Source of the DNA: Promethearchaeota archaeon
GTDB taxonomy: Archaea > Asgardarchaeota > Thorarchaeia > Thorarchaeales > Thorarchaeaceae
Assembly (NCBI GenBank): GCA_027031765.1
Contig: JALVPN010000066.1
Location: 1 to 16,162 of the forward strand
Direction: 5' to 3'
Length of the DNA stretch: 16,162 nucleotides
Shown here: in pieces, positions 852 to 16,162 of the stretch
Layout: each line of letters opens with the position of its first letter
Position numbering within the stretch: the first letter of the stretch is position 1
Translations under genes and position numbers: made by a program
The notes under the pieces: generated by a model
Told to the model about the DNA's origin: nothing
What the model saw: only the letters and a program-made list of their open reading frames with translations
Databases searched by the model: none

Positions 852-1508
852 GTGTGGAAGCTCGCCATTGTCGCTGCGGTCATGCTGGTGGTCTGCTCCA
901 CGTCGCTACTTGTGTACACGACCTACATGCGTGAACAGTACGTGACATATCGGGAGAGCGGTTCAAGTCCGGACATTTCTGTCAGCACATCCTTGGACGG
1001 TGGACACTCCTACCTTGTGTACGTGACCCTGACCCGTAGTGCGAAGGGGTCAGCATCAGTGCACGGCACGGTGGAAGTGATTGTGAACGGCACGACCGTA
1101 CACACTATGACCCTTAGTGCTACCCGCAGCTCCGGCAAGCCCGCAAAGTCGGTCACAGCAGTGGCCTCAGAGGGGTACGAGCTGGTACTGACGCACACCT
1201 CTGAGCTTGTGGTACGTGGGAACATGACTGTGGGTGATAGCTGGGAGGTGAAGGTGTACGCGGACATCCCGCAGTGGCTGGCCTCCCTGACAACGCAGGC
1301 CATACTGTTCTTTGGTGCCACCGTCGTGTTGCTCATGGGTCTCGGCCTGCCCTACGTAGTGAAGTACCACACCAGGCGAGGTGGACAGCGCACGTTGGTG
1401 TCAACCACTACAGAGGGGCAGCTGATGGGTGACCGGCCAGCCGTAGACGACAAAGGGGCCCTGGCAGACAGCGACAGCAGCTGGGACGAGTGGGACACAG
1501 ATAGGTGA
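852..1508 (+). CDS. Two-TM surface protein with a beta-rich extracellular domain and acidic C-terminal tail; paralog of 9508-10095
   Basis: GTG start, with an in-frame TGA at 831-833. N-terminal TM (WKLAIVAAVMLVVCSTSLLVY), Ser/Thr/Val-rich beta-like middle with sequons NGT and NMT, second TM (AILFFGATVVLLMGLGLPYVV), tail ending DSDSSWDEWDTDR. Shares NGTTV and GxMxxGDSWEVxVYxDxP with 9508-10095. Confidence 0.85.
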   Translation: MWKLAIVAAVMLVVCSTSLLVYTTYMREQYVTYRESGSSPDISVSTSLDGGHSYLVYVTLTRSAKGSASVHGTVEVIVNGTTVHTMTLSATRSSGKPAKSVTAVASEGYELVLTHTSELVVRGNMTVGDSWEVKVYADIPQWLASLTTQAILFFGATVVLLMGLGLPYVVKYHTRRGGQRTLVSTTTEGQLMGDRPAVDDKGALADSDSSWDEWDTDR

Positions 1509-1554: not shown

Positions 1555-2583
1555 TCACTGCTGGTGCCAGCACTCTGGGTCTGGGCCTAGGAAGTCACCA
1601 CCGTAGTAGTACGCGTTGCCCCTGCAGCCCCAGCATATGCTGTTGTACTTGCAGTTGCGGCAGGCAGCCGACAGGTGTGAGGGGTCACGGAGTGGTACCT
1701 TGAGGAGGAGCTCTTTCGCGGACTCAAAGGGGCCGGCGAAGTCGGAACCATTGAGCCGTGCCACAGGGTGGCGGATCCTTGCACAGGGCGTCAGCTCGCC
1801 CCCAATGGTCACCGCGCAGGTCGTCCCGCAGTAGAACTTGCTGACGCAGTTAGGGATGACCGGCATCTCCCCGTTGAACACAGTGTCACTTATGGTCTGG
1901 TATGCCTGTCGTATCTGTCCTCTGGTGGGGACGTATCTGTCTGCATCGGGGACACCTGGGGCCGGTTTGAAAGGGACAATGCCAGATGCAATGCCGTACT
2001 CGTGGAAGAGTCTCTCCACGGTTCGTTCGAGGTCACCGTCGGCCTGTAAGCGGGTGAAGGTCATACAGTTGTTCAGCCTTGCCGGGTCCACGCCCATGTC
2101 GAGCAGTGTGCGTACGTTGGAGAGCACCCTGTCAATGTAACTGCTGGCGCCTGCCAGCTGACGGTAGAGCTCGGGGTCGAGAGTGTCCAAGTGGAACGAT
2201 ACGAAGCCCTGCGTGTGTTCCTCGAGCAGGAAGTCCACCACCGTGTCGGACAGCAGCATGTCGCCCGAGCTCCAGATGTTGTTCGTCAGGCCCAGGGCTG
2301 TGCTGGCGGCTAGCAGCTCTTCGAAGGACGGGTGCCTCACTGGGTCGCCGCCCAGCCACTCAATTACCCTCACGCCCACGTCAGCAGCCTGTTCCAGCAC
2401 GGACAGTACGAGCTCGCCGTCCATGTGGGTCACAGGCTGTCCGGGAGTGCGCACGTAGCAGAACTTGCAGCCCTGACCACATGCGGTCGTTATCTCCAGC
2501 TGGAGCGAGTAGAGCTGCTGTTTTTCGAAGTACTCGACCATGGTACTGTTGAAGAAGTAACCATCGATATCGGTCACACTCAT
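1555..2583 (-). CDS. Radical SAM protein with C-terminal SPASM domain (PqqE/NirJ/AhbC-D-like architecture), substrate unknown
   Basis: CxxxCxxC motif CGQGCKFC, WLGGDP strand motif, auxiliary-cluster motifs C..CGTTCAVTIGGELTPC and CRNC-x5-CWGCRGNAY...GD...DPEC. Start moved to ATG 2583 (MSVTDID, 342 aa) because GGTGA lies at 2598-2594; the ORF-track start at 2682 is probably too long. Confidence 0.92.
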   Translation of the reverse strand: MSVTDIDGYFFNSTMVEYFEKQQLYSLQLEITTACGQGCKFCYVRTPGQPVTHMDGELVLSVLEQAADVGVRVIEWLGGDPVRHPSFEELLAASTALGLTNNIWSSGDMLLSDTVVDFLLEEHTQGFVSFHLDTLDPELYRQLAGASSYIDRVLSNVRTLLDMGVDPARLNNCMTFTRLQADGDLERTVERLFHEYGIASGIVPFKPAPGVPDADRYVPTRGQIRQAYQTISDTVFNGEMPVIPNCVSKFYCGTTCAVTIGGELTPCARIRHPVARLNGSDFAGPFESAKELLLKVPLRDPSHLSAACRNCKYNSICWGCRGNAYYYGGDFLGPDPECWHQQ

Positions 2584-2712
2584 CTGGGGCCCCTCACCAG
2601 ACTGCGGGACGGCGGTGTTGCAGCCGTTCAGTTGCCATGCAGTCGTTGTCCTCGACTCACTTATCTCTCGCGCTCGGGGCACGCTACCGGCCCTGTCGAA
2701 TGGACGTGGTCC

Positions 2713-3771
2713 TCATCCGGAGAAGTACCTTGTGAGGAACATGTCAACCCAGTCGTAGAAGGAGCCGAGCATCTCCCTCACAAGGCCTACGCCGAGACGC
2801 CGACGCAGGATCGTGTCGACCACTGCCTTTCTGAGGAATGGGTAGTAGTGTGGCAGTGGGAACACGTTCAGTGGAAACTTCTGGTGCCTGGTGAGGAAGA
2901 TGTTGACCCGCTCGACCCAGCGCGCGTTCACGACATCCTCGGTGTACGCGGTGGGGTCCTGCACTACGAGTGACTCGAGCTCGGCAAGCATGGGTGAGAA
3001 TATCTCGCGCTGCACTTCGTCGAAGGAGAAGCCCTGTGGGCGCATCTCTGGTGAAGTGGCGAGCCGCCTGTAGAGGTCGGCCAGGTCGTCGGAGCCGGGC
3101 ACCGTGTAGACCTCGCGCCGGAGCCGGACCAGCCGGGAGAACTCTGTGGACAGCCCCCTGTCCTTCTCGAGGACAGAGAACACATGGACGAAGTGAGTAC
3201 TGTCCCATGTGTCGTCACCGAACAGATCCTTGAACATTGTCACTGTCGTGCGGTAGGCACCCGGTATGCGCAGCTCGTGGGGACTCGTGATGCTCCAGAT
3301 GTTCATGAAGACAAATGGTGGCATGCCGAGGTCACGTGGTGCATCGGGCCGGTAGCTTGGGAAACAGTAGTTCCCATCGACCACTATCAGGTCCGGCTGG
3401 AATCCCTCGACGCCACGCTCGACGGCATACGAGACCGCAGCCTCCCGGAGGAGCTCGAACACCTGTTCAGGACCGAGGGGGCTGAACTCCCGTGGCCTGA
3501 CGAGGTGCAGTTGGTCGGTCACGGGCAGGTAGTATGCTGTCCCCACAGAGGGTAGTGAGAAGGCGGTCTCAAAACGCCGTTCAGCACCGTCACGCAGGTC
3601 GCGCAAGGCCTGGAAGAGGTCCTGGTTCGTGTGGTTGATGTCCACAGCCAAGACTCTGAGAGGTGGGGATCTTGACAGCGCCCACATGACCAGCGCAATG
3701 GCCAGTGGTGTCTTCCCACTGCCACCCTTGTTGCTCGTCACAATGACCGTCTGTGGTGTCTTGATCTGCAT
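2713..3771 (-). CDS. Divergent ParA/MinD-superfamily (SIMIBI) P-loop ATPase
   Basis: Deviant Walker A TSNKGGSGKT near the N-terminus, Walker A'-like RVLAVDINHTNQDL, Walker B-like PDLIVVDG, and a C-terminal LPHYYPFLRKAV segment resembling the ParA IP...v..A region. ATG directly abuts the upstream TGA. Confidence 0.85.
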   Translation of the reverse strand: MQIKTPQTVIVTSNKGGSGKTPLAIALVMWALSRSPPLRVLAVDINHTNQDLFQALRDLRDGAERRFETAFSLPSVGTAYYLPVTDQLHLVRPREFSPLGPEQVFELLREAAVSYAVERGVEGFQPDLIVVDGNYCFPSYRPDAPRDLGMPPFVFMNIWSITSPHELRIPGAYRTTVTMFKDLFGDDTWDSTHFVHVFSVLEKDRGLSTEFSRLVRLRREVYTVPGSDDLADLYRRLATSPEMRPQGFSFDEVQREIFSPMLAELESLVVQDPTAYTEDVVNARWVERVNIFLTRHQKFPLNVFPLPHYYPFLRKAVVDTILRRRLGVGLVREMLGSFYDWVDMFLTRYFSG

Positions 3772-5020: not shown

Positions 5021-8000
5021 TTAGGTCGGCCTACGACCGGACTGCGTGGACTCTGGATTTGATAGGCGGAGCACCATTGAGACCCAAGTGCAAGGCTTGG
5101 TTGTCGCTGTTGTGGAACCCGAGCCGCTACTATTCCCACCACCAGTCCGGTCTGCAAAGCAGTCACGGTAGCACGGCCCCGACACGGATGCAACAAGCAC
5201 TTCCAGTACAAACTGTGTGTTGTCTGCCGACCCCTCCATTCCCTCCATTTCTATGAGCCGTCCACCTGGTTTCCCAAGCTGTTTGAGTAGCAGGTCATAG
5301 GACGCCGCGAAACACAGCAAGTTGTTCGTCCCAAACCTCGCTTGCAACCCCATGTTGTCCATAGTCCTGTAGGCTGCAGCAGGACACAGCCGGGTGTCCA
5401 TGTTAGTATCCAGACGCTTGGACACTCTGCTTCCCTGAGGTGTGTACTGGGCGATTGGGGCAATCTTGATGTAGACTCCGCCGTTACTCTCGGTCACTTT
5501 CAAGCCCAGCTCAGAACCAAAGCGACTGGCAATCTTCACAAACCTGCTCGCAATGTGCGACCAGACGGACTTACCACCTTCGTCCGTTACAATGTAGGCA
5601 GTCTTGATCCACGGAAGACCAGCCTCACTCTCAGTGCCCTCACCATCCCCAGTGTCCTCAGTGCCCTCACCATCCCCAGTGTCCTCAGTGCCCTCACCAT
5701 CCCCAGTGTCCTCAGTGCCCTCACCATCCCCAGTGTCCTCAGTGCCCTCACCATCCCCAGTGTCCTTAGTATCCACATAGTCCCATACCGCTTGGACAAT
5801 CGCACGGGGTTCCCACTGGTTGCATGGGACAATGGTGAAGGTGAGAAGGTTCTTTGTTGGAGTGCCACTCGGTCGGTCCGAAATGTCCATCCCAACGGTG
5901 CCTGCAAGGGTTTCCAAAAGCCGGATGAAAGACCCTGGTGCGTCGTTCATGCACACCGCAAGATGAGCAACAGACCACTTACGTGGGTACTCGCTGGTCG
6001 GAGGATGTGAACCAGACTCGCTCCCAGTCATTTCGTCACCTTGACGGTCATAGATGAGGTGACGCAGCATCAACACCAAGGGTATGATATTGGGACTTGA
6101 GCAGCCATACGTCACACGGCCCCTCACAAGACCCCGTGTGACAAGGAGGTAGTCAGGATGTAGGATCCAATGGAACCCCATTGCGTTCTCGTCTGGGTTC
6201 TTTGCAATCTGCCTCCCTGCATGACAGTGAATCCTACAATGAGGTAGCCGGACATCGTGTTCATCCTGGCGTGGCGTGACTGGTTCATCGTGTCGGGATG
6301 GGTGTTCACCATATCGGGCTATTGCTGACAACATGGATGCCACCAGTTGGGGGCGGGGCACTATTGTCGGGATTAGGTGGATGTGGCCGCAACTCCTCAT
6401 TGTCCGGGCCAGTGTTTCGATGCAGGTGCGTGCTTGGTTTGCATCCTCTGTTTCAATCACCAATCTAATCGTATGTTCCACATGTGGGAAGTCGTGGTCG
6501 GCCGAGCCGCCGCTGCTGGGCCCTCCGCCAGTCTGCTGGCTGGTGCGAAACTGCAGCACCCTCATGAGCCACTTTGTGACCATGAATGGGTCCACTTCAC
6601 TCCCATCAATCGAAACGACTTGCATGTTGTGGACAACGTTGTGGAGTACACCTTGATGTGGCTGCCCAATGAAGACGTCCAACCATTTGACCAACGGGGC
6701 CTCGTCCTCCGAAGTCCCCAAGGAGTCACGGAAGTGCAGGGGCACAAGTCCGGTTACCAAGGCATCATGCCGCGGCCGATAGACAAATGCCTCCCATCTA
6801 TCTGGACGCACCATGTATGCAGAAATGGACGCCAGTTCCTTCTCGGCCTCCTTTTTGAAGGCGGATTTGTTTCCCCCGTTCATGGTGCTGACCAGCCCCC
6901 ACACCATGGTCTCGAGCGCATAGAACAGCCTGCGTGACGGCTCCCCCACAGATACTATGTCCGCATCGAGTAGTGCGGGGTAGTCTGCCCCACTCTCTCC
7001 GTGACGCGCAGGGGCCTCTGTTGCACCACTCCCAGTTATCCGACGCGCATTGGGTAGGGCCCACCCGATGAGGGCAAAAGCACCGGTGAATGAGGCAAGC
7101 CACCTGTTTGGGAAGACCGGTACCGTATCAAGTCTGGGGCTGCCAGCCGCCGTGATAGTATTCTCCCGCATCACGAGTTGTACAGTATTCGAAGAGTCAA
7201 CCACCGTGACCAGGACAGGCCAGGTGCGGTTGAAGTCAATCGGCCTGTCACGCAGACTGCGGGCGTGCTGCAACATTGAGAGCATTGCTGTGCGGTTGAA
7301 CGGTGTGTAGACGACAATCTTGGCATACCTCATGAACCTGCGCGCAATGGGGTTGCGGGAAACATCCTCAACTATTGCTGGCACGAGCAACACCATGTGT
7401 CTGGGCGAGTCGAGTGCGATCTCAAGGACCCCGTAGGTCCCGAGGTGTGGATGAGTCCCCATTGTCCGAATCGTCTGTGCCGAGTCTATTACCGCCATCC
7501 CTTTGACAATGTATATCCAGGTATCGGGACGAGTGGGGGAGCGCGGAAGGGCTTGGAGTGAAATGCCGGTCTTGCGACTCACGAGCACAGGGTACCCTTT
7601 GTCTATGCCTTCCAGCAGATCTTCTTGGAACAGTGTCCTCGACACTACATCTATGACGAAGAACTCAGCCACTTTTCCACTCCCGACCAGCAGGTAGGCA
7701 TACGTGCCTGATGACAGCGCCCGTGTCACCACATTGCCTATGAAGTCACTCTCTTCCGAGTACCTCGTGAAACTTGACAGGACCATGGCATAGAAGGGCA
7801 CAGCCATGCCGAGGTCTATCGCCATCAACAGGCTCGGATTTGTCAGGGAGCTCGGGCCCGGTGTGATGGGGAAGAACACCATCTGGGCAATGTAGACATA
7901 CTTTGTGAACATGGCCATGAGGAGTACAATCAACTGGGTCCTAAAGTTGAGCCTGAGGATGTGGGAACCATATACGGACTCGGGCCCCCTCAACATGAAG

Positions 8001-9115
8001 AACATACACAGAAGACCGAGGAGCAGACTGGCAGCCACTACGTACGACGCGCCAACGAAACATGCTTTCAGGTATAGCGTAGCGTCAGCCTTCGCAACTA
8101 GTGGGGCGGCCTCCTGTAGTGTTGGGATTGAGAGGAGTGCCATTGCCATTATGCAACCCGCGTAGAACACGAACCTGTTCGCAATACGGTTGTTGCCGCT
8201 GAGTGTGACGTAGCTGAGCAATATGTCCTTCAAGTCATGGATGCCGCGGATTCGAAGACCTTCCGTTCTCTTTGGTACCCCTACAATGGTCCAGACAATC
8301 GCTGCTACCAGCCACCCGATGAGTACCAGTACGATGACGGCCGGCATGACGAGTAGTAATGACCATGTGATGGACACGAGAAGTGTGATGTCGGGGAGGA
8401 GCACACTCGCCAAGGGCAAGTAGAACATGATACACGGGGCCACAACGCATGCCATACAGAGCCCCAGTGCTGTGTGGCAAGCGATGTCGGTCTTGTCGGA
8501 ACCAGTCAGAGCAGCATGCTGCCTCGTGCGCCAAAAGTGGACCAAGTACATGCACCACACAAGCGACAACACGACCAAGTACCTCTGCACGAGAACGCCA
8601 TCAGGGACTATCTGTGAGGGTGTACTTCCATAGACCAAGATATGTATGGCCTCACGGACGAAAGGGGCACTGAATGTGCACATGGCGATAGACAACACAG
8701 CTAGAATCTCGACAGCATGCCTCACGAAGGGCAAGAATGTCCATCCAGTAGGCGAGCTGGTGGCCGACTCGGCGCGCCTCTGCATGTTCCACCCCCGCAT
8801 GAAATTGTCTATTGCCACAGCAACAAAGGTCGGCAGGCCAATGAATGTTGTCACAATCACTGCCCAAACGGGTGTGAATCCCAGTTCGCATAACAAGGCC
8901 TCCAGGAAGGTCAAGTAATACAGTTCGCCATACGTGCAGTACAACACGACCCTAACAATCATGGCGGCCAGGGGCAAGAACCAGCCGATGAGTGCAAACA
9001 CCACACAGTACAAGAGAAACTTGCCTCGCTCCGCGTGCCCAGTCGAATGTTTCGTCGTGGCCAAGACAGATTGCCTCCCGCATGGCATGCGAGACCAGAC
9101 GGGCAGCGTGCCCAC
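5021..9115 (-). CDS. 1364-aa membrane protein: about 10 TM helices, divergent RCK/TrkA-N-like domain(s), ACT-like domain(s), acidic tandem-repeat insert
   Basis: About 10 hydrophobic segments in the first 460 aa. YAYLLVGSGKVAEFF (aa about 472) resembles the Rossmann GxGxxG start of TrkA-N. ARSL...VLVTVVDSSN...VFPNRWLAS resembles the RCK-N ending, and a second similar ending occurs at IRLVIETED...IVPRPQLVASML. HLAVCMNDAPGSFIRLLETLAG resembles the ACT beta1-loop-alpha1. The ORF is high confidence; the domain calls are moderate. The GTG start is uncertain by a few codons. Confidence 0.75.
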   Translation of the reverse strand: MGTLPVWSRMPCGRQSVLATTKHSTGHAERGKFLLYCVVFALIGWFLPLAAMIVRVVLYCTYGELYYLTFLEALLCELGFTPVWAVIVTTFIGLPTFVAVAIDNFMRGWNMQRRAESATSSPTGWTFLPFVRHAVEILAVLSIAMCTFSAPFVREAIHILVYGSTPSQIVPDGVLVQRYLVVLSLVWCMYLVHFWRTRQHAALTGSDKTDIACHTALGLCMACVVAPCIMFYLPLASVLLPDITLLVSITWSLLLVMPAVIVLVLIGWLVAAIVWTIVGVPKRTEGLRIRGIHDLKDILLSYVTLSGNNRIANRFVFYAGCIMAMALLSIPTLQEAAPLVAKADATLYLKACFVGASYVVAASLLLGLLCMFFMLRGPESVYGSHILRLNFRTQLIVLLMAMFTKYVYIAQMVFFPITPGPSSLTNPSLLMAIDLGMAVPFYAMVLSSFTRYSEESDFIGNVVTRALSSGTYAYLLVGSGKVAEFFVIDVVSRTLFQEDLLEGIDKGYPVLVSRKTGISLQALPRSPTRPDTWIYIVKGMAVIDSAQTIRTMGTHPHLGTYGVLEIALDSPRHMVLLVPAIVEDVSRNPIARRFMRYAKIVVYTPFNRTAMLSMLQHARSLRDRPIDFNRTWPVLVTVVDSSNTVQLVMRENTITAAGSPRLDTVPVFPNRWLASFTGAFALIGWALPNARRITGSGATEAPARHGESGADYPALLDADIVSVGEPSRRLFYALETMVWGLVSTMNGGNKSAFKKEAEKELASISAYMVRPDRWEAFVYRPRHDALVTGLVPLHFRDSLGTSEDEAPLVKWLDVFIGQPHQGVLHNVVHNMQVVSIDGSEVDPFMVTKWLMRVLQFRTSQQTGGGPSSGGSADHDFPHVEHTIRLVIETEDANQARTCIETLARTMRSCGHIHLIPTIVPRPQLVASMLSAIARYGEHPSRHDEPVTPRQDEHDVRLPHCRIHCHAGRQIAKNPDENAMGFHWILHPDYLLVTRGLVRGRVTYGCSSPNIIPLVLMLRHLIYDRQGDEMTGSESGSHPPTSEYPRKWSVAHLAVCMNDAPGSFIRLLETLAGTVGMDISDRPSGTPTKNLLTFTIVPCNQWEPRAIVQAVWDYVDTKDTGDGEGTEDTGDGEGTEDTGDGEGTEDTGDGEGTEDTGDGEGTESEAGLPWIKTAYIVTDEGGKSVWSHIASRFVKIASRFGSELGLKVTESNGGVYIKIAPIAQYTPQGSRVSKRLDTNMDTRLCPAAAYRTMDNMGLQARFGTNNLLCFAASYDLLLKQLGKPGGRLIEMEGMEGSADNTQFVLEVLVASVSGPCYRDCFADRTGGGNSSGSGSTTATTKPCTWVSMVLRLSNPESTQSGRRPT
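5630..5764. repeat. Perfect tandem repeat, 5 x 27 bp (CTCAGTGCCCTCACCATCCCCAGTGTC), coding (DTGDGEGTE)x5 on the minus strand
   Basis: Identical units at 5630, 5657, 5684, 5711 and 5738, with no spacers. In frame with the 1364-aa CDS. Confidence 0.97.
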
Positions 9116-9507: not shown

Positions 9508-10095
9508 TCAGGTCTCGGGGCTCCCACTCGTGGGTGCCGTTTCCTTGGTGGCGGAGCGCCCAGAGAGATCCCAGTAGGTCGCGTACTTTGCGAGAGCAAT
9601 GACTGTCAGGATGCCGGTCACACCTATTGCGACTACAGAGTACGTGACTAGGGCCTGCGCCTCTGGTGGGACATCCTGATAGACACGCACCTCCCAAGAG
9701 TCGCCCAGTACCATGTGGCCTGTGACACGCACCTCCGTGGCCCCTGTCGCATTGAATGAGTAGAATGCCGTTGCCTGTGCACGGCTGGACGACCCGCTGG
9801 AGGACTCTGTGTCTAGGACAGTGGCATTGTAGACCGTGGTACCATTGAGGAGGATGATCACGTCCCCTTTTGCGGTCGCTATGCTGCCGCCGCTGCGATA
9901 GATGTCCACGCGGATGGTGTACGCATGGTCGCCTTCGACGGTCGTCGTGAAGACAAAGTCATCTTCCAGGCCCGTGTCGTAGCCAGCAACGTACTGTTCG
10001 AGGTTGAGGTTGGCAAGGACAAAAGTGCAGACTGAAAGGGCCAGCGCTGCGATACAGACGACTGTCACTCGCTTCCAGAATGTCTTCGTACCCAT
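9508..10095 (-). CDS. Two-TM surface protein with a beta-rich extracellular domain; paralog of 852-1508
   Basis: Perfect GGAGGTG at 10108-10102 supports ATG 10095 (MGTKTFWKR, 195 aa) over the GTG at 10104. TM1 VTVVCIAALALSVCTFVLA; sequons NGT, NAT, NAT; GDSWEVRVYQDVP; TM2 LVTYSVVAIGVTGILTVIALA. Confidence 0.85.
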   Translation of the reverse strand: MGTKTFWKRVTVVCIAALALSVCTFVLANLNLEQYVAGYDTGLEDDFVFTTTVEGDHAYTIRVDIYRSGGSIATAKGDVIILLNGTTVYNATVLDTESSSGSSSRAQATAFYSFNATGATEVRVTGHMVLGDSWEVRVYQDVPPEAQALVTYSVVAIGVTGILTVIALAKYATYWDLSGRSATKETAPTSGSPET

Positions 10096-10432
10096 TATGT
10101 GCACCTCCCACGCACGGCCCAGAGGCGACCTGCGGCGACCACAGGCCGACGGACGGGCGCGGGTCTGCAGACCGGGCGGGTACTATGGACTACCACTCCC
10201 CGGGCCATGCCGGGTCATTGCGGTAAGTCGTGGTCCCAGACACTTAAGTCATGTGGCAGTCCATACTGGCACCGGGCCTGTTGCTACATGGGCACTGCTC
10301 GCTGGGTGGCGGCTGCCGCGCTACAATAGCGGGCCCCGCATCACCTCTCATATATGTAGTAGACACACCGTCAGGACGTTGGCCGGGCGTCGCTGACATC
10401 TCCCGCTCCACCAGCAGGCAGGTGGTGTCTGT

Positions 10433-12126: not shown

Positions 12127-14268
12127 TTGACACGCTACAGGGGAGCCGACCCGGTCGTTGACCTTGTCTATGAGGCCATGACACGGAGAAACAAACTGGC
12201 GTTCAAGTTGTTCTCGCACGCAGAGAGCGTCGTGATCCGACTTGAGGAGGTGGTCGAGGACGCCGCCTTCGGGGTAGCGGTCACCAGCGAGTACGAGCAC
12301 TACCACAAACGGGCCCACTGTGAACCCGGCTCTGACCTCTCCAGTGTCCACACATACTCATTGCAGGGGACACGCGTACCACCAATGCGGCCCACTTCGT
12401 TCACAACACGCTACGACGAGTTCCCACGGGAGGGCAGCGTGCTCACGGAGGCCTGTAGGTGTGGTGGCCGACCAGTGACATGTCCCAACTGTTCTGGCAC
12501 CCGTGTTGTCACCTGCCCCAAGTGCTACCAACCGCGGAGTGGCAAGTGTAGAAACTGTGCCGGTAGCGGCCTCGTGGACTGCCCACAGTGTGGTGCGACC
12601 GGGCGTTGCAGTGGGTGCGGGGGCTCTGGCACAGTGCGGTGTCCAGAGTGTAGTGGGAGGGGCACCGTGCTCAGGGAGTGGAAAGAGAGGCGCACCTGCA
12701 GGGCGTGCAGTGGTAGGGGCTACGTGAGCGGCTATCCGTGTACCAACTGCTACACCACGGGTGTTGAGACCGTGACTCGCTCCGAGTATGTCACCTGCTC
12801 GCGTTGCGGTGGTGAGGGCCGTGTGCCGCACAGCAAGTGCGGTGGGACTGGCAAGTGTACACGCTGTGGGGGTGAGGGGCATGTGCCTTGCGAAGTATGT
12901 CACGGCACGGGCATCTGCCAGTTCTGTGATGGTGCTGGCACCAAGACCTGTCCAACGTGCGGGGGCGGTGGTACAGTGACGTGCCCGGTCTGCGAGGGGG
13001 TTGGCAGCCTCCTCCTCTACGTCTCTGACTGTTACGAGTACGAGCCCATCTGCGACGACGACCGTGTTGTGCCGGGGTACTTCAAAGATGTGCGTGACAG
13101 GCTCGACAGCAGCCTTGCAGTGGCAATGGAGCGCCTCGACGCGGACGACCTCTACTCCGCCATCGGGCTCAGCAACAACCGCATGCTGGGCACCCTCGAC
13201 AGGGCAAAGGAGCTGCACTCGGGCCTGATAGCAAGGGCGAAGGGACGCCAGTTCAACACCGGGAGCACCGACCCCGACAGTGCTCTCAGAGCGGAGGCAC
13301 GTTCAAAGGTGGAGTCCGAAGTCGACAGGGACTGGGCTGCCAACAACAGTGACTCGTACTACGCATCCTACCTGCTACATGTGCCCGGCAGCGCCCGCAG
13401 TACGGACTCGGACCGGTACTACACCACAATAATCGCCATGAAACACGACTTCAAGACGTGGCCGCTCGGGCTTGTCAACTACACTGCTGGTGGGAAGCCG
13501 CGCACAAGGTACGTAGTCGGTACGAAGGAGGCCTCTGTGACAACTGAGAAAGGGGCGAGCAGACGCGCCCTGGGTAAGGTCCTGGCCTTCGTGGTCGGCG
13601 TCTTCACACTATCAGTACTCCTGCTCAACCAGTTCACCAGTTACCAGTTCTACCCCGCCTACGGTTCCCTCTGGCTGGCCCTTGCTCTCGTGTCATGGGC
13701 ATCATATTTCGCCCTCCTATACCGTACTGTGAGCACCCAGACCGAAGAGCTGGTCGTCGTCACGAGTACGGACGACCTTGACGGTCTGACGTTGGTAGCG
13801 GCACTGGCCCACTGTGCAGCCGAGGAGGACGCTGCGGTCCCCGAAGACCCCATATGCGAGAAACTGACCGCGCACCTCCTTGGAGACCGCCTCGTGCTCG
13901 GCTCATCGGTCTGTTACACACTCTCAAGGAGCACCGGACGCGGTGTCCGCGTGCTGTACATGTCAGGGGCCACGGTCAGGACTCCGACCGCAGCGGCACG
14001 GGCACTCGTATCACTGGCAAGCAAGGTGATTGTCGTGGTCTCAGCAGGTGCGGACGGGGCAGACCTACTAGACAGCATTGTTGCTCTGGTGAAGGACGCC
14101 ACATCTCAGAAGCTGCTCGTGGCCCCTGAGGGCGTGCCAGTGCCTGACGACATCGGGGGAAAAAAGGTCAACATGGACCTCAGTGCGGTCAGGGGCATGT
14201 TGGAAACGGCATCGGACAGTGCGACGCGCACCCTAAGACCGCTACTGTCCCAGGTGATCGGTGACTGA
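12127..14268 (+). CDS. SSUH2-like protein with an expanded CxxCxGxG zinc-knuckle array, two TM helices and a C-terminal degenerate GTPase-like domain
   Basis: 14 CxxC + 1 HxxC + 1 CxC motifs at 12454-13005. Flanking segments PTSF...FPREGSVLTEAC, CEGVGSLLLY and IIAMKHDFKTWPLGLVNYTAGGKPRTRYVVGT recall SSUH2-family sequences. Two TMs at about 13567-13722. C-terminal strand order fits a small-GTPase fold lacking GKS/T. No J-domain. Start taken as TTG 12127 (GGAGG at 12112-12116; 713 aa); ATG 12178 or GTG 12070 are alternatives, and the track start at 11896 overlaps the divergent gene. Confidence 0.78.
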   Translation: MTRYRGADPVVDLVYEAMTRRNKLAFKLFSHAESVVIRLEEVVEDAAFGVAVTSEYEHYHKRAHCEPGSDLSSVHTYSLQGTRVPPMRPTSFTTRYDEFPREGSVLTEACRCGGRPVTCPNCSGTRVVTCPKCYQPRSGKCRNCAGSGLVDCPQCGATGRCSGCGGSGTVRCPECSGRGTVLREWKERRTCRACSGRGYVSGYPCTNCYTTGVETVTRSEYVTCSRCGGEGRVPHSKCGGTGKCTRCGGEGHVPCEVCHGTGICQFCDGAGTKTCPTCGGGGTVTCPVCEGVGSLLLYVSDCYEYEPICDDDRVVPGYFKDVRDRLDSSLAVAMERLDADDLYSAIGLSNNRMLGTLDRAKELHSGLIARAKGRQFNTGSTDPDSALRAEARSKVESEVDRDWAANNSDSYYASYLLHVPGSARSTDSDRYYTTIIAMKHDFKTWPLGLVNYTAGGKPRTRYVVGTKEASVTTEKGASRRALGKVLAFVVGVFTLSVLLLNQFTSYQFYPAYGSLWLALALVSWASYFALLYRTVSTQTEELVVVTSTDDLDGLTLVAALAHCAAEEDAAVPEDPICEKLTAHLLGDRLVLGSSVCYTLSRSTGRGVRVLYMSGATVRTPTAAARALVSLASKVIVVVSAGADGADLLDSIVALVKDATSQKLLVAPEGVPVPDDIGGKKVNMDLSAVRGMLETASDSATRTLRPLLSQVIGD

Positions 14269-14503
14269 CCTGACAGGACCCCGGGGCAACAGGCCGGAGC
14301 ACGCTGGCACCACGACACCTGTTGGACACGTGGTCTGGTAAGTGCGCGACTGGCGAGCACAGGAGCACACGGTACATGGCCGCAGTGGGGTCCCAGCTCC
14401 GGGAGGCACCAGCACAGGACTGAGATACCACCCACACAGGCTACATTGAAATAGTGGCGGGGTGACCAGTCCGTATCAGCACAGCGGGGGCAGTGGACGG
14501 ACA

Positions 14504-15328
14504 ATGGTAGCTACGCGCTTGCCGGCAGTGGTCGTGGGCACCATCATCTTCTCGCGGCGACGCAAGGTCCCGGTGGTGGGAGTCCACGGTGCGGGCAAGT
14601 CGTGTCTGTTGTTGAGCATGGCCTACGTGGTCTCCAAGATGGGATGGGGCCACGTGAACACCGAGTCCATGGACTACTTCAACAGTGCCCTGCGCTATGT
14701 CCTTGCGGGACAGCAGCTACCTCCGACGGTGGCCACGCAGGACATCCGGATCATAGTGAAGGACATGGAGATCGATGAGCGCAAGTACCGGCCTTTCGTG
14801 CTCAGCAGTTCGGACTACTCCGGTGCAATGTTCGAACGCGTGATGGAAGAGTACCGGCTGATGGACAGGCAGGTGCCTGTAGCGGACGAGACAGCGTCAT
14901 TCCTGAAGCTCTTCGAGCGTTCCAGTTGCCTGGTTGTCGTAATCGACCTTGTGAGAGGGCTCGGTGCCGAGGAGTTCAGGGCGGACATCGAGGCTGGCAT
15001 GCGCAAGGCTTTCTCGGAGCAGCTGGTGCCAGTGTCACGGGCAATAGAGCACGCCGTGGCCCGCAGGGGCCTCAGCAACCGGCCGGTCATGTTCGTCTTC
15101 AGCAAGGCGGACCTGCATGGACTCACAGTGGACGAGATACGACCGTACTTCGACAGGGTGATGGCCATAACCCTTGGCAGGCTTAGGCGGCTGGGCACAC
15201 CGGTCAACCTCTACACCACGGTGGCCACGGGCTGGGGCCGCGATACTACCGAGGACCAGTGGCTCCATGCCCTTGAGGCAAAGGGCGTCACTGACCTGCT
15301 GACCGGCATTGCCCGTGCTGTGGCATAG
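14504..15328 (+). CDS. TRAFAC-class small GTPase, similar to 'double-GTPase' (DO-GTPase) family members
   Basis: G1 GVHGAGKS (14579-14602), G2 PPTVAT, G3 DYSG (14813-14824), beta4 CLVVVID, G4 SKAD (15101-15112), G5-like YTTVATG. Helical insert between G1 and G2. Start is ATG 14504 or GTG 14462; an AT-rich TTGAAATA at 14446-14453 slightly favours 14504. Confidence 0.9.
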   Translation: MVATRLPAVVVGTIIFSRRRKVPVVGVHGAGKSCLLLSMAYVVSKMGWGHVNTESMDYFNSALRYVLAGQQLPPTVATQDIRIIVKDMEIDERKYRPFVLSSSDYSGAMFERVMEEYRLMDRQVPVADETASFLKLFERSSCLVVVIDLVRGLGAEEFRADIEAGMRKAFSEQLVPVSRAIEHAVARRGLSNRPVMFVFSKADLHGLTVDEIRPYFDRVMAITLGRLRRLGTPVNLYTTVATGWGRDTTEDQWLHALEAKGVTDLLTGIARAVA

Positions 15329-15437
15329 ACCCTGTTGCTGCACCATGACAACACGGGGGCCGGCCAATGACGGGGAGCACCTACGCCACTGGGGCCCCAC
15401 ACGATATCGCACAGGAATGAGGTGGTGACAGATAGAG

Positions 15438-16162
15438 ATGGGGACTGACATCGATACTGTGTCTGTGGTATACCAGGAAACCGTTGTGAGCAGCGTGGCT
15501 CTTGGACATGGAGAAGAAGCGTTCCTCCGTACCGGGCTGTTCCCAGCGTATCCGGCCCCCGACTTCGCCATGAGGGCCTACACAGCAGCAAAGGTGGTGT
15601 CACGGGGCGACTGGTTGTACGTGTCAGTGATTAGGGGTGGCCAGACTGCTGACAGCTTCGGCCGGCCCACACTCGTTGCAAGGGCTGCGAGGGTACCCCT
15701 CGTCGAGGCCGCAGTAAGACCACTCGACTGGACACGACTGTTCAGTGCACTCAGCGAGAAGACGGGGGCTGCGACACCTGCAGCTGTCCGTGTGCCCGAA
15801 CTCGACCGCGGCAAGCTCGTAGCGGCCACCCGTCCGTATCGACAACTCCTCCCCAGAGTGCTGGCCGCGGCCATGGACAAGACGCCCGCACTATGTCGTG
15901 CGCCAGACTACGGGACGGCAATACGGCTACTGTGTGCGTTCCTACTCCTTGCTCCACGCGTGGTCATGGCCAGGTCGCCCATTGCCACGGACTGTTCCAG
16001 TCCGGGTGCCAAGGGTGCAGAGCACCTCGTAGTCCAACCGGAGGTAGCCCTGACAGGAGGCACCCAGCACGAAAGACTCATCGCCGGACCACCGGGGAAA
16101 CGGAGCGCTGGACGCAAGGTGCTGACATTCGACATCAGGAGGCCTGGTTCCGGCCCCCACCC
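15438..16162 (+). CDS. GAP1-N2/GAP1-M-like (possibly DENN-like) GTPase-associated protein, N-terminal part (runs off the right edge; not in the supplied track)
   Basis: ATG 15438 preceded by GAGGTGGTGA (15419-15428), open for 241 codons: MGTDIDTVSVVYQETVVSSVALGHGEEAFLRTGLFPAYPAPDFAMRAYTAAKVVSRGDWLYVSVIRGGQTADSFGRPTLVARAARVP...LLPRVLAAAMDKTPALCRAPDYGTAIRLLCAFLLLAPRVVMARSPIATDCSSP... The ORF is solid; the family call is by motif recall. Confidence 0.72.
   Translation, partial: MGTDIDTVSVVYQETVVSSVALGHGEEAFLRTGLFPAYPAPDFAMRAYTAAKVVSRGDWLYVSVIRGGQTADSFGRPTLVARAARVPLVEAAVRPLDWTRLFSALSEKTGAATPAAVRVPELDRGKLVAATRPYRQLLPRVLAAAMDKTPALCRAPDYGTAIRLLCAFLLLAPRVVMARSPIATDCSSPGAKGAEHLVVQPEVALTGGTQHERLIAGPPGKRSAGRKVLTFDIRRPGSGPH

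Follow-up and report, generated by a model that had tools for sequence, protein, structure and literature searches.

The stretch of DNA considered here (the window) is the whole of contig JALVPN010000066.1 (C66; 16,162 bp), from an assembly of a Promethearchaeota archaeon (GCA_027031765.1) that comprises 2.95 Mb in 229 contigs, and its right end carries three open reading frames, all in the same direction, between positions 12127 and 16162. Gene 1 encodes a protein with a predicted membrane hairpin and a C-terminal pseudo-GTPase domain, gene 2 a small GTPase and gene 3 a probable minimal GAP1 protein, and together they are probably a divergent, stripped-down member of the prokaryotic GTPase-centric systems that combine DO-GTPases with GAP1, in this case a membrane-anchored switch. 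An earlier note, made from the sequence alone, had described three co-directional genes that give a degenerate GTPase fold behind two transmembrane (TM) segments, an intact GTPase and a protein with a DxxGRP motif, and all of these are present, with both features and gene order kept in homologues. The same note had taken the set for a candidate new system and for an archaeal variant. Both descriptions have to be given up, in that the module is a variant of the type of system published by Kaur et al. 2020 (PMC7159879; eLife 9:e52696) and not a new system class, and in that it is not specific to archaea, relatives also being found among neighbouring genes of bacterial type.

Gene 2 (14462 to 15328; this and all other features of the module lie on the forward strand) encodes a small GTPase, intact in its motifs, from what appears to be a divergent branch of the DO-GTPases, with candidate starts at GTG 14462, ATG 14504 and TTG 14519. 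Its G1, switch I, G3 and G4 motifs stand intact at positions that are invariant, or nearly so, in an alignment of 28 family members. These are the P-loop GVHGAGKS (G1, 14579 to 14602), in which G, G and K are invariant; a switch I Thr; DYSG (G3, 14813 to 14824), with G102 invariant and D99 nearly so; and SKAD followed by a family-invariant His (G4, 15101 to 15118), with K196, D198 and H200 invariant. The hhalign comparison of the gene 2 family with the canonical DO-GTPase1 encoded on another contig of the same genome (C118), a protein that itself passes Pfam, gives a probability of 96.9% and E 2e-10 over 213 columns, and it places gene 2 with the DO-GTPases. Pfam DO-GTPase2 and DO-GTPase1 match gene 2 at E 0.004 and E 0.04, respectively. 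Moreover, DO-GTPase2 is matched by 17 of the 28 aligned relatives at E<=0.01 (best 1.1e-6) and DO-GTPase1 by five, with no Ras-type family near these in number and Arf matched by one member. A sequence search of the PDB gave matches at the P-loop level only. Judged by its sequence, then, gene 2 belongs with the DO-GTPases and not with Rab, Arf or Rag. The family is rare but real: in an exhaustive search, 65 of 1.84 billion cluster representatives match its profile at E<=1e-3, 26 of them at E<=1e-30, and a word-indexed search of 5.8 billion proteins, a kind of search that hardly sees such families, returned one relative.

The second G domain forms the C-terminal 181 residues of gene 1 (aa 533–713; 13723 to 14265). 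A confident model built from an alignment with five homologues (predicted local distance difference test score, pLDDT, 84; predicted template modelling score, pTM, 0.83) gives 124 PDB matches at E<=1e-3 in Foldseek, of which the best 50 of 124 are all GTPases, and the 50 best matches found by VIA-align are all G-domain proteins. The nearest models in the ESM Atlas belong to DO-GTPase2 clusters, with TM-scores of 0.73 (over 171 aa) and 0.70. By hhalign the domain aligns with the gene 2 family at E 4.6e-5 (probability 68%), with the beta1-loop-alpha1 unit in register. It has no nucleotide-binding motifs: GxxxxGK[ST], with its P-loop Lys/Ser, DxxG and NKxD are missing, and they are absent in all six aligned homologues; the loop at the P-loop position is acidic in the window copy. 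It is on the strength of the fold, the DO-GTPase2 neighbours, the alignment to the gene 2 family and the missing motifs that the pseudo-GTPase call is accepted; in other words, the domain as modelled has a G-domain fold of the DO-GTPase kind in which the GTP-binding residues are gone. Full-length homologues of gene 1 share 27–31% identity with it (L026, 740 aa; L053, 713 aa; L055, 653 aa; and L054, partial), and a 536-aa protein in L060 matches the gene 1 profile. A word-indexed protein search with the C-terminal half of gene 1 returned only the protein itself.

Gene 3 (15438 to 16162) has 241 residues visible and no stop codon, the contig ending first. Its 13 relatives are 280–350 aa long with a short helical C-terminal tail, in addition to one 681-aa fusion, and because the homologues are of only this length, little of gene 3 is missing. 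The protein is probably a minimal GAP1 with N and M domains only, predicted as a longin-type N domain followed by a GAP1-M/cDENN-like domain. This call follows from four lines of evidence: a weak Pfam GAP1-M match (E 0.11, aa 132–211); an hhalign match that places the gene 3 family on the GAP1-M part of the canonical C118 GAP1 (E 5.2e-5, probability 67%), which is weak with a consistent register; language-model neighbours, of which the ten best that bear a family are all GAP1-N2, N1 or M clusters (top score 0.95, with 201 of 256 features in common); and shape, since the nearest Atlas models to the AlphaFold2 prediction (pLDDT 74, pTM 0.76) are GAP1 clusters (N1/N2) with TM-scores of 0.53–0.64 over 164–207 aa. 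In the PDB the same model has likenesses to TagF, DENND1 and longin structures, in keeping with the GAP1/DENN-like call. Residues Q13, F35-P36, K52, S63, R76-P77, D97, L105, P173 and E195 are invariant in the family. R76-P77 forms part of the D..GRP motif (15651 to 15668), in which D72 is nearly invariant among the 13 relatives and which in the model lies on the beta4-beta5 hairpin of the longin-type domain, where it is a candidate GTPase-contact or arginine-finger site. A PDB search with the gene 3 sequence gave nothing, Pfam GAP1-N (N1 or N2) matches neither gene 3 nor any of its 13 relatives, and no Pfam DENN family appears at E<=1 in the 13 members. The Pfam profiles, which the earlier note had put forward as a check on its calls, bear these out in part, in that DO-GTPase2 and GAP1-M matches do appear, albeit below cut-off, and GAP1-N and DENN do not.

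Gene contexts drawn from metagenome contigs, from one metagenome-assembled genome (MAG) and from two further genomes in the phylum confirm that the genes keep company elsewhere. In every one of the 13 loci a gene 3 homologue stands immediately after the GTPase, and the stop codon of the one and the start codon of the other often overlap; a gene 1 homologue is present in seven of the 13. The 737-aa upstream protein of L024, which is polytopic in the membrane and shows no zinc array when aligned, was excluded both from the gene 1 alignment and from this count. One protein of 849 aa (P0028) is a natural fusion of a gene 1-like part with the GTPase, its N terminus aligning to gene 1 at E 4e-15, and a similar fusion of the gene 1 architecture with the GTPase is found in P0025. 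In some other loci TM segments are fused straight to the GTPase.

Co-folding, another check proposed at the outset, gave a pass of limited weight. The pair of gene 2 and gene 3 reaches an interface score (ipSAE) of 0.35, the median of three runs, against 0.00 for the best control; at least 63% of contacts are common to the runs, and the partner pLDDT is at least 79. The mark used is passed by 58 of 80 solved complexes and by two of 110 mismatched pairs. At scores of <=0.60 it is passed by only seven of the 80 solved complexes and by both mismatches, and by the calibration of the tool most passes as low as this one are false, except where the pairing was likely beforehand.

The likeness to known systems (PF19975, PF19993, PF20012-14) is one of overall organisation. 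Kaur et al. 2020 (PMC7159879) describe paired DO-GTPase paralogues, N-terminal zinc ribbons on 60% of the DO-GTPases, TM segments and a GAP1 downstream of the GTPase, and the module has comparable elements: two paralogous TRAFAC G domains, one of them with zinc modules and TM segments, and a GAP1-type gene directly downstream of the GTPase. Both are spread patchily over bacteria and a few archaea. The differences lie in the detail. Unlike the known systems, the module has one nucleotide-dead G domain, a long DnaJ-type zinc array in place of one or two ribbons and a shifted Walker-B Glu. Its GAP1 is cut down to N and M, ~300 aa in all, and lacks both GAP1-C and a fused effector; FNIII and GASH components are missing, and all Pfam scores of the module are below cut-off. 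Contig C118 of the same genome offers a direct comparison (L023, 4289–12956, reverse strand), in which a canonical DO-GTPase1, truncated where the contig stops, is followed by a 1553-aa protein with GAP1-N2 and GAP1-M and then by a 982-aa FG-GAP-repeat protein. With the module counted, the genome therefore holds at least two GTPase-centric systems.

Several of these observations weigh against the assignment. No Pfam, NCBIfam or PADLOC model scores above cut-off on any of the three proteins, the DO-GTPase2 match of gene 2 being 17.3 bits for a gathering cut-off of 27, and the GAP1-M match, itself weak, is made by only one of the 13 gene 3 relatives. The Walker-B Glu, which in the canonical C118 protein follows the G3 glycine directly (G+1, DVSGE), is found in the gene 2 family at G+4, where it may be replaced by Arg (D[YIF]SGxx[FY]E). 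None of the loci seen has GAP1-C, FNIII, GASH or an effector domain that can be recognised, and the predicted interface lends weak support to the pairing of gene 2 with gene 3.

The mechanism that may be proposed extends beyond the folds, family relationships, gene order and natural fusion described above. The gene 1 product would be held in the membrane by a predicted hairpin of two hydrophobic helices (aa 482–500 and 513–531; 13570 to 13719; Kyte-Doolittle windows 2.37 and 1.64), with both ends predicted to be cytoplasmic; in the alignment, homologues of gene 1 are also hydrophobic and helical at this place. The N-terminal half bears an extended DnaJ-type zinc-knuckle array, and a ligand of this array is possibly the input. 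The dead G domain of gene 1 and the live one of gene 2 probably pair, such that the active GTPase is kept at the membrane; pairing of two paralogous DO-GTPases has already been proposed for the known systems. Gene 3 is the probable binding partner of the live GTPase, whose nucleotide state it would control, acting either as an exchange factor, in the manner of DENN modules, or as an activator by way of the invariant Arg76. The output may be the HEAT-repeat protein that comes next in several relatives and that in two Asgard genomes has a ubiquitin-like C terminus and E1-like and JAB genes close by, in which case the corresponding part would here lie beyond the end of the contig.

Given the assignment to DO-GTPase/GAP1 systems, a role in conflict, defence or stress signalling is favoured at roughly even chances, because the distribution of the module is patchy and crosses domains. 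Strong matches within the phylum are confined to three of the 400 genomes searched, in two different families, and outside it there are relatives in a Nitrososphaerota MAG and on a contig that also carries LamB and further genes of bacterial type. Nothing in the neighbourhood of the window copy supports such a role, which counts against it: no known defence genes flank the module and the GC content of the region is unremarkable. PADLOC gave only mad8 for gene 2 (E 0.0012, over the P-loop half), and this was not accepted as evidence of a defence island.

The predicted fold of gene 3 raises a different possibility. Against the PDB, the model resolves into an N-terminal longin-type domain, in the position of u-DENN, and an alpha/beta domain, with matches to TagF, DENND1A/B-Rab35, FLCN/FNIP, C9orf72-SMCR8, the GATOR1 longin and a Lokiarchaeota longin, so that the DENN part of the earlier proposal also finds an echo in structure; the DENN scores fall in a range where likeness of fold alone could explain them. 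Asgard archaea, moreover, have been reported to encode DENN operons and expanded families of DENN paralogues (bioRxiv 10.1101/2020.10.19.343400). On these grounds the module might be a native, eukaryote-like regulatory or trafficking switch of Asgard archaea, in which a DENN-type exchange factor and a small GTPase act on a membrane anchor, akin to the roadblock-Rab-DENN operon or to FLCN/Rag modules, with no conflict system involved. Such a switch is improbable, however. The GTPase is nearest to the DO-GTPases and not to Rab, Arf or Rag, gene 3 has no Pfam DENN match, and strong matches in so few genomes of the phylum, together with homologues in a Nitrososphaerota MAG and beside LamB, are not what a native Asgard switch would lead one to expect. 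The Asgard roadblock-Rab-like-DENN operon (10.1101/2020.10.19.343400) does share with the module the pairing of a small GTPase with a DENN-like protein; unlike it, the module is seldom found, lacks a roadblock gene and has a GTPase pair of the DO type, and identity with that operon is rejected, the roadblock gene being absent and the GTPase of the wrong type. Compared with the eukaryotic DENN modules (DENND1A/B-Rab35, FLCN-FNIP, C9orf72-SMCR8), gene 3 has neither a sequence-level DENN match nor a visible d-DENN (the copy here is cut and the relatives are short), its partner is not Rab-, Arf- or Rag-like, and the likeness is one of fold, taken from models.

The likeness of gene 3 to TagF, an accessory protein of the type VI secretion system (T6SS; PDB 9t0n, 6iz8, 2qnu), is structural only. 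A TagF-like T6SS function is rejected, as there are no T6SS genes in the window: none of the T6SS families is found among the window proteins, and the Pfam family of TagF is not among the matches. TagF is not known to work with a GTPase, and the host here is an archaeon.

A reading in terms of protein quality control starts from the zinc array of gene 1 (12454 to 12993; aa 119–289), which is of the DnaJ/BSD2 type and by regular-expression count has 14 strict CxxC motifs, ten of them CxxCxGxG. In the PDB the family profile finds BSD2 and the cysteine-rich domain of DnaJ, and Pfam gives GRXCR1-2_C and DnaJ_CXXCXGXG matches, both sub-threshold. The array had been called SSUH2-like; library searches of gene 1 gave only DnaJ_CXXCXGXG, GRXCR1-2_C, BSD2_CRD and zf-AtTam37 and no SSUH2 family, homology beyond CxxCxGxG not being testable there. 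A language-model search with the N-terminal half of gene 1 had a top score of 0.83, a lead only. In the relatives, a HEAT-repeat protein follows the gene 3 homologue in five loci (L051, L052, L053, L055 and L059). In two of these, from the two other Asgard genomes (L051, 4383–11077, and L053, 906–8712; genomes G168 and G169), the ~250-aa HEAT protein carries a ubiquitin domain at its C terminus (E 6e-10 and 9e-10), and a ThiF/E1-like gene adjoins the module; L053 has two confirmed Prok-JAB genes, and L051 has a 165-aa gene beside ThiF. Kaur et al. 2020 (PMC7159879) also report HSP70, GrpE and DnaJ-domain themes around GAP1-N2, in 14% of its gene neighbourhoods. The module could accordingly be pictured as a membrane-associated device for protein quality control or ubiquitin-like tagging, in which the zinc knuckles bind non-native proteins and the GTPase pair gates their hand-over to a HEAT-ubiquitin-like protein served by E1-like and JAB enzymes.

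This picture is unlikely. The number of CxxC motifs in gene 1 homologues ranges from 0 to 14, the array being short or absent in many, and six of the 13 loci have no gene 1 homologue at all, so that the zinc module is not the defining arm that the earlier note took it to be. The link to E1 and JAB is seen in only two related genomes. In the window there are no HEAT-ubiquitin, E1 or JAB genes, and none that convince elsewhere in the assembly with the queries used, tblastn with the HEAT-ubiquitin, HEAT, 560-aa and 374-aa neighbour proteins giving short, weak matches only.

That the three genes are unrelated neighbours, with resemblances that reflect generic P-loop and alpha/beta similarity, would be compatible with library matches that are all sub-cut-off and with genes that are spaced by gaps in the window, and is nevertheless very improbable in view of the constant and often overlapping adjacency of the GTPase and gene 3 in all 13 loci, the gene 1–gene 2 fusion and an hhalign match at E 2e-10 across the whole G domain.

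If the module is a DO-GTPase/GAP1 system, its structural likenesses bear on a wider proposal, which is offered as a tentative possibility and one that may well prove wrong. The GAP1-N and GAP1-M head of DO-GTPase systems, and TagF, might be true homologues of the eukaryotic longin-DENN core, such that cognate pairs of DENN-type regulator and GTPase would already have been widespread in bacteria and archaea before eukaryotes, and the Asgard module would be a prokaryotic counterpart of the heterodimeric Rag-type GTPases with their FLCN-FNIP-type regulators. Whether GAP1 heads are true homologues of DENN and TagF is the point of most interest. Kaur et al. 2020 (PMC7159879) make no mention of DENN, longin or TagF, and no coupling of GAP1-N2 with DENN was found in the literature searched. 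DO-GTPase/GAP1 systems have so far been defined by sequence analysis only, and the literature searched contained no experimental or structural work on GAP1. In this regard, the module is the smallest form seen, with a GTPase of ~270 aa, a GAP1 of ~300 aa and a dead G domain that is separable, and this small size and separability make it a convenient place for biochemical and structural work to begin. The predicted longin plus DENN/TagF-like fold of GAP1 amounts to a testable link that joins the conflict systems of bacteria with a T6SS regulator and with the regulators of eukaryotic GTPases, and, given the Asgard origin of the module, such links bear on how GTPase regulation arose. Moreover, a pseudo-GTPase and a live GTPase that are split in one case and fused in another would be a clear natural case of a dead paralogue retained as a scaffold.

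Some details of the locus remain to be given. Gene 1 (12127 to 14268; 713 aa) comprises, in order, an N-terminal region, the zinc-knuckle array, a middle region, the two-TM hairpin and the pseudo-GTPase domain. Its start in the public protein collection is TTG 12127, the 713-aa form being that on record, and the N terminus conserved in homologues extends upstream of ATG 12178. The intergenic gaps are ~190–250 bp between genes 1 and 2 and 109 bp between genes 2 and 3, with no overlaps, and a GAGGTGGTGA motif sits a little 5' of the gene 3 ATG. Extension of the contig to the right, which had been suggested as a means to complete the operon, did not succeed: none of the other contig ends of the genome overlaps the right end of the window, and tblastn found no gene 3 tail on another contig of the assembly. 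Rfam, tRNA and tandem-repeat scans of 12127–16162 gave nothing except the coding zinc-knuckle repeat.

Among the relatives, a second and more distant DO-GTPase2-like gene follows the HEAT gene in L059 (5688–6737), from which it appears that the system can carry two live GTPases, with TM segments fused to the first. Genome G168 has a second copy of the module (L052, 3674–5719, reverse strand), in which the gene 3 homologue is fused to a coiled-coil tail of ~330 aa with a weak ATG17-like match (E 1e-4). Genomes of the same family as the window have clusters of two or three adjacent GTPase genes, some divergently oriented (L034–L050: G011 C30, G012 C22, G026 C128, G035 C165); their relationship to gene 2 is remote (E 1e-9 to 1e-12), and they may be another DO-GTPase lineage.

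Elsewhere in the window, a radical SAM enzyme (1555–2682, reverse strand; Pfam E 2e-17) lies beside a ParA/MinD-like P-loop protein (2713–3771, reverse strand), and with the next two genes these look like a separate co-directional unit. The radical SAM enzyme, which is unrelated to the module, has weak PADLOC pVip matches through its radical-SAM core; these are generic and were not accepted as evidence of a defence island. The reverse strand at 5021–9115 encodes a 1364-aa multi-TM protein with no Pfam assignment, inside which a repeat at 5630–5770 (a 27-bp unit in 5.2 copies, 99% match) encodes an acidic nonapeptide of Asp, Gly, Glu and Thr. Two small proteins (852–1508, forward strand, and 9508–10104, reverse strand) have a hydrophobic segment at each terminus and no family match, and appear to be paralogous, with common motifs such as NGTTV and GDSWEV.VY.

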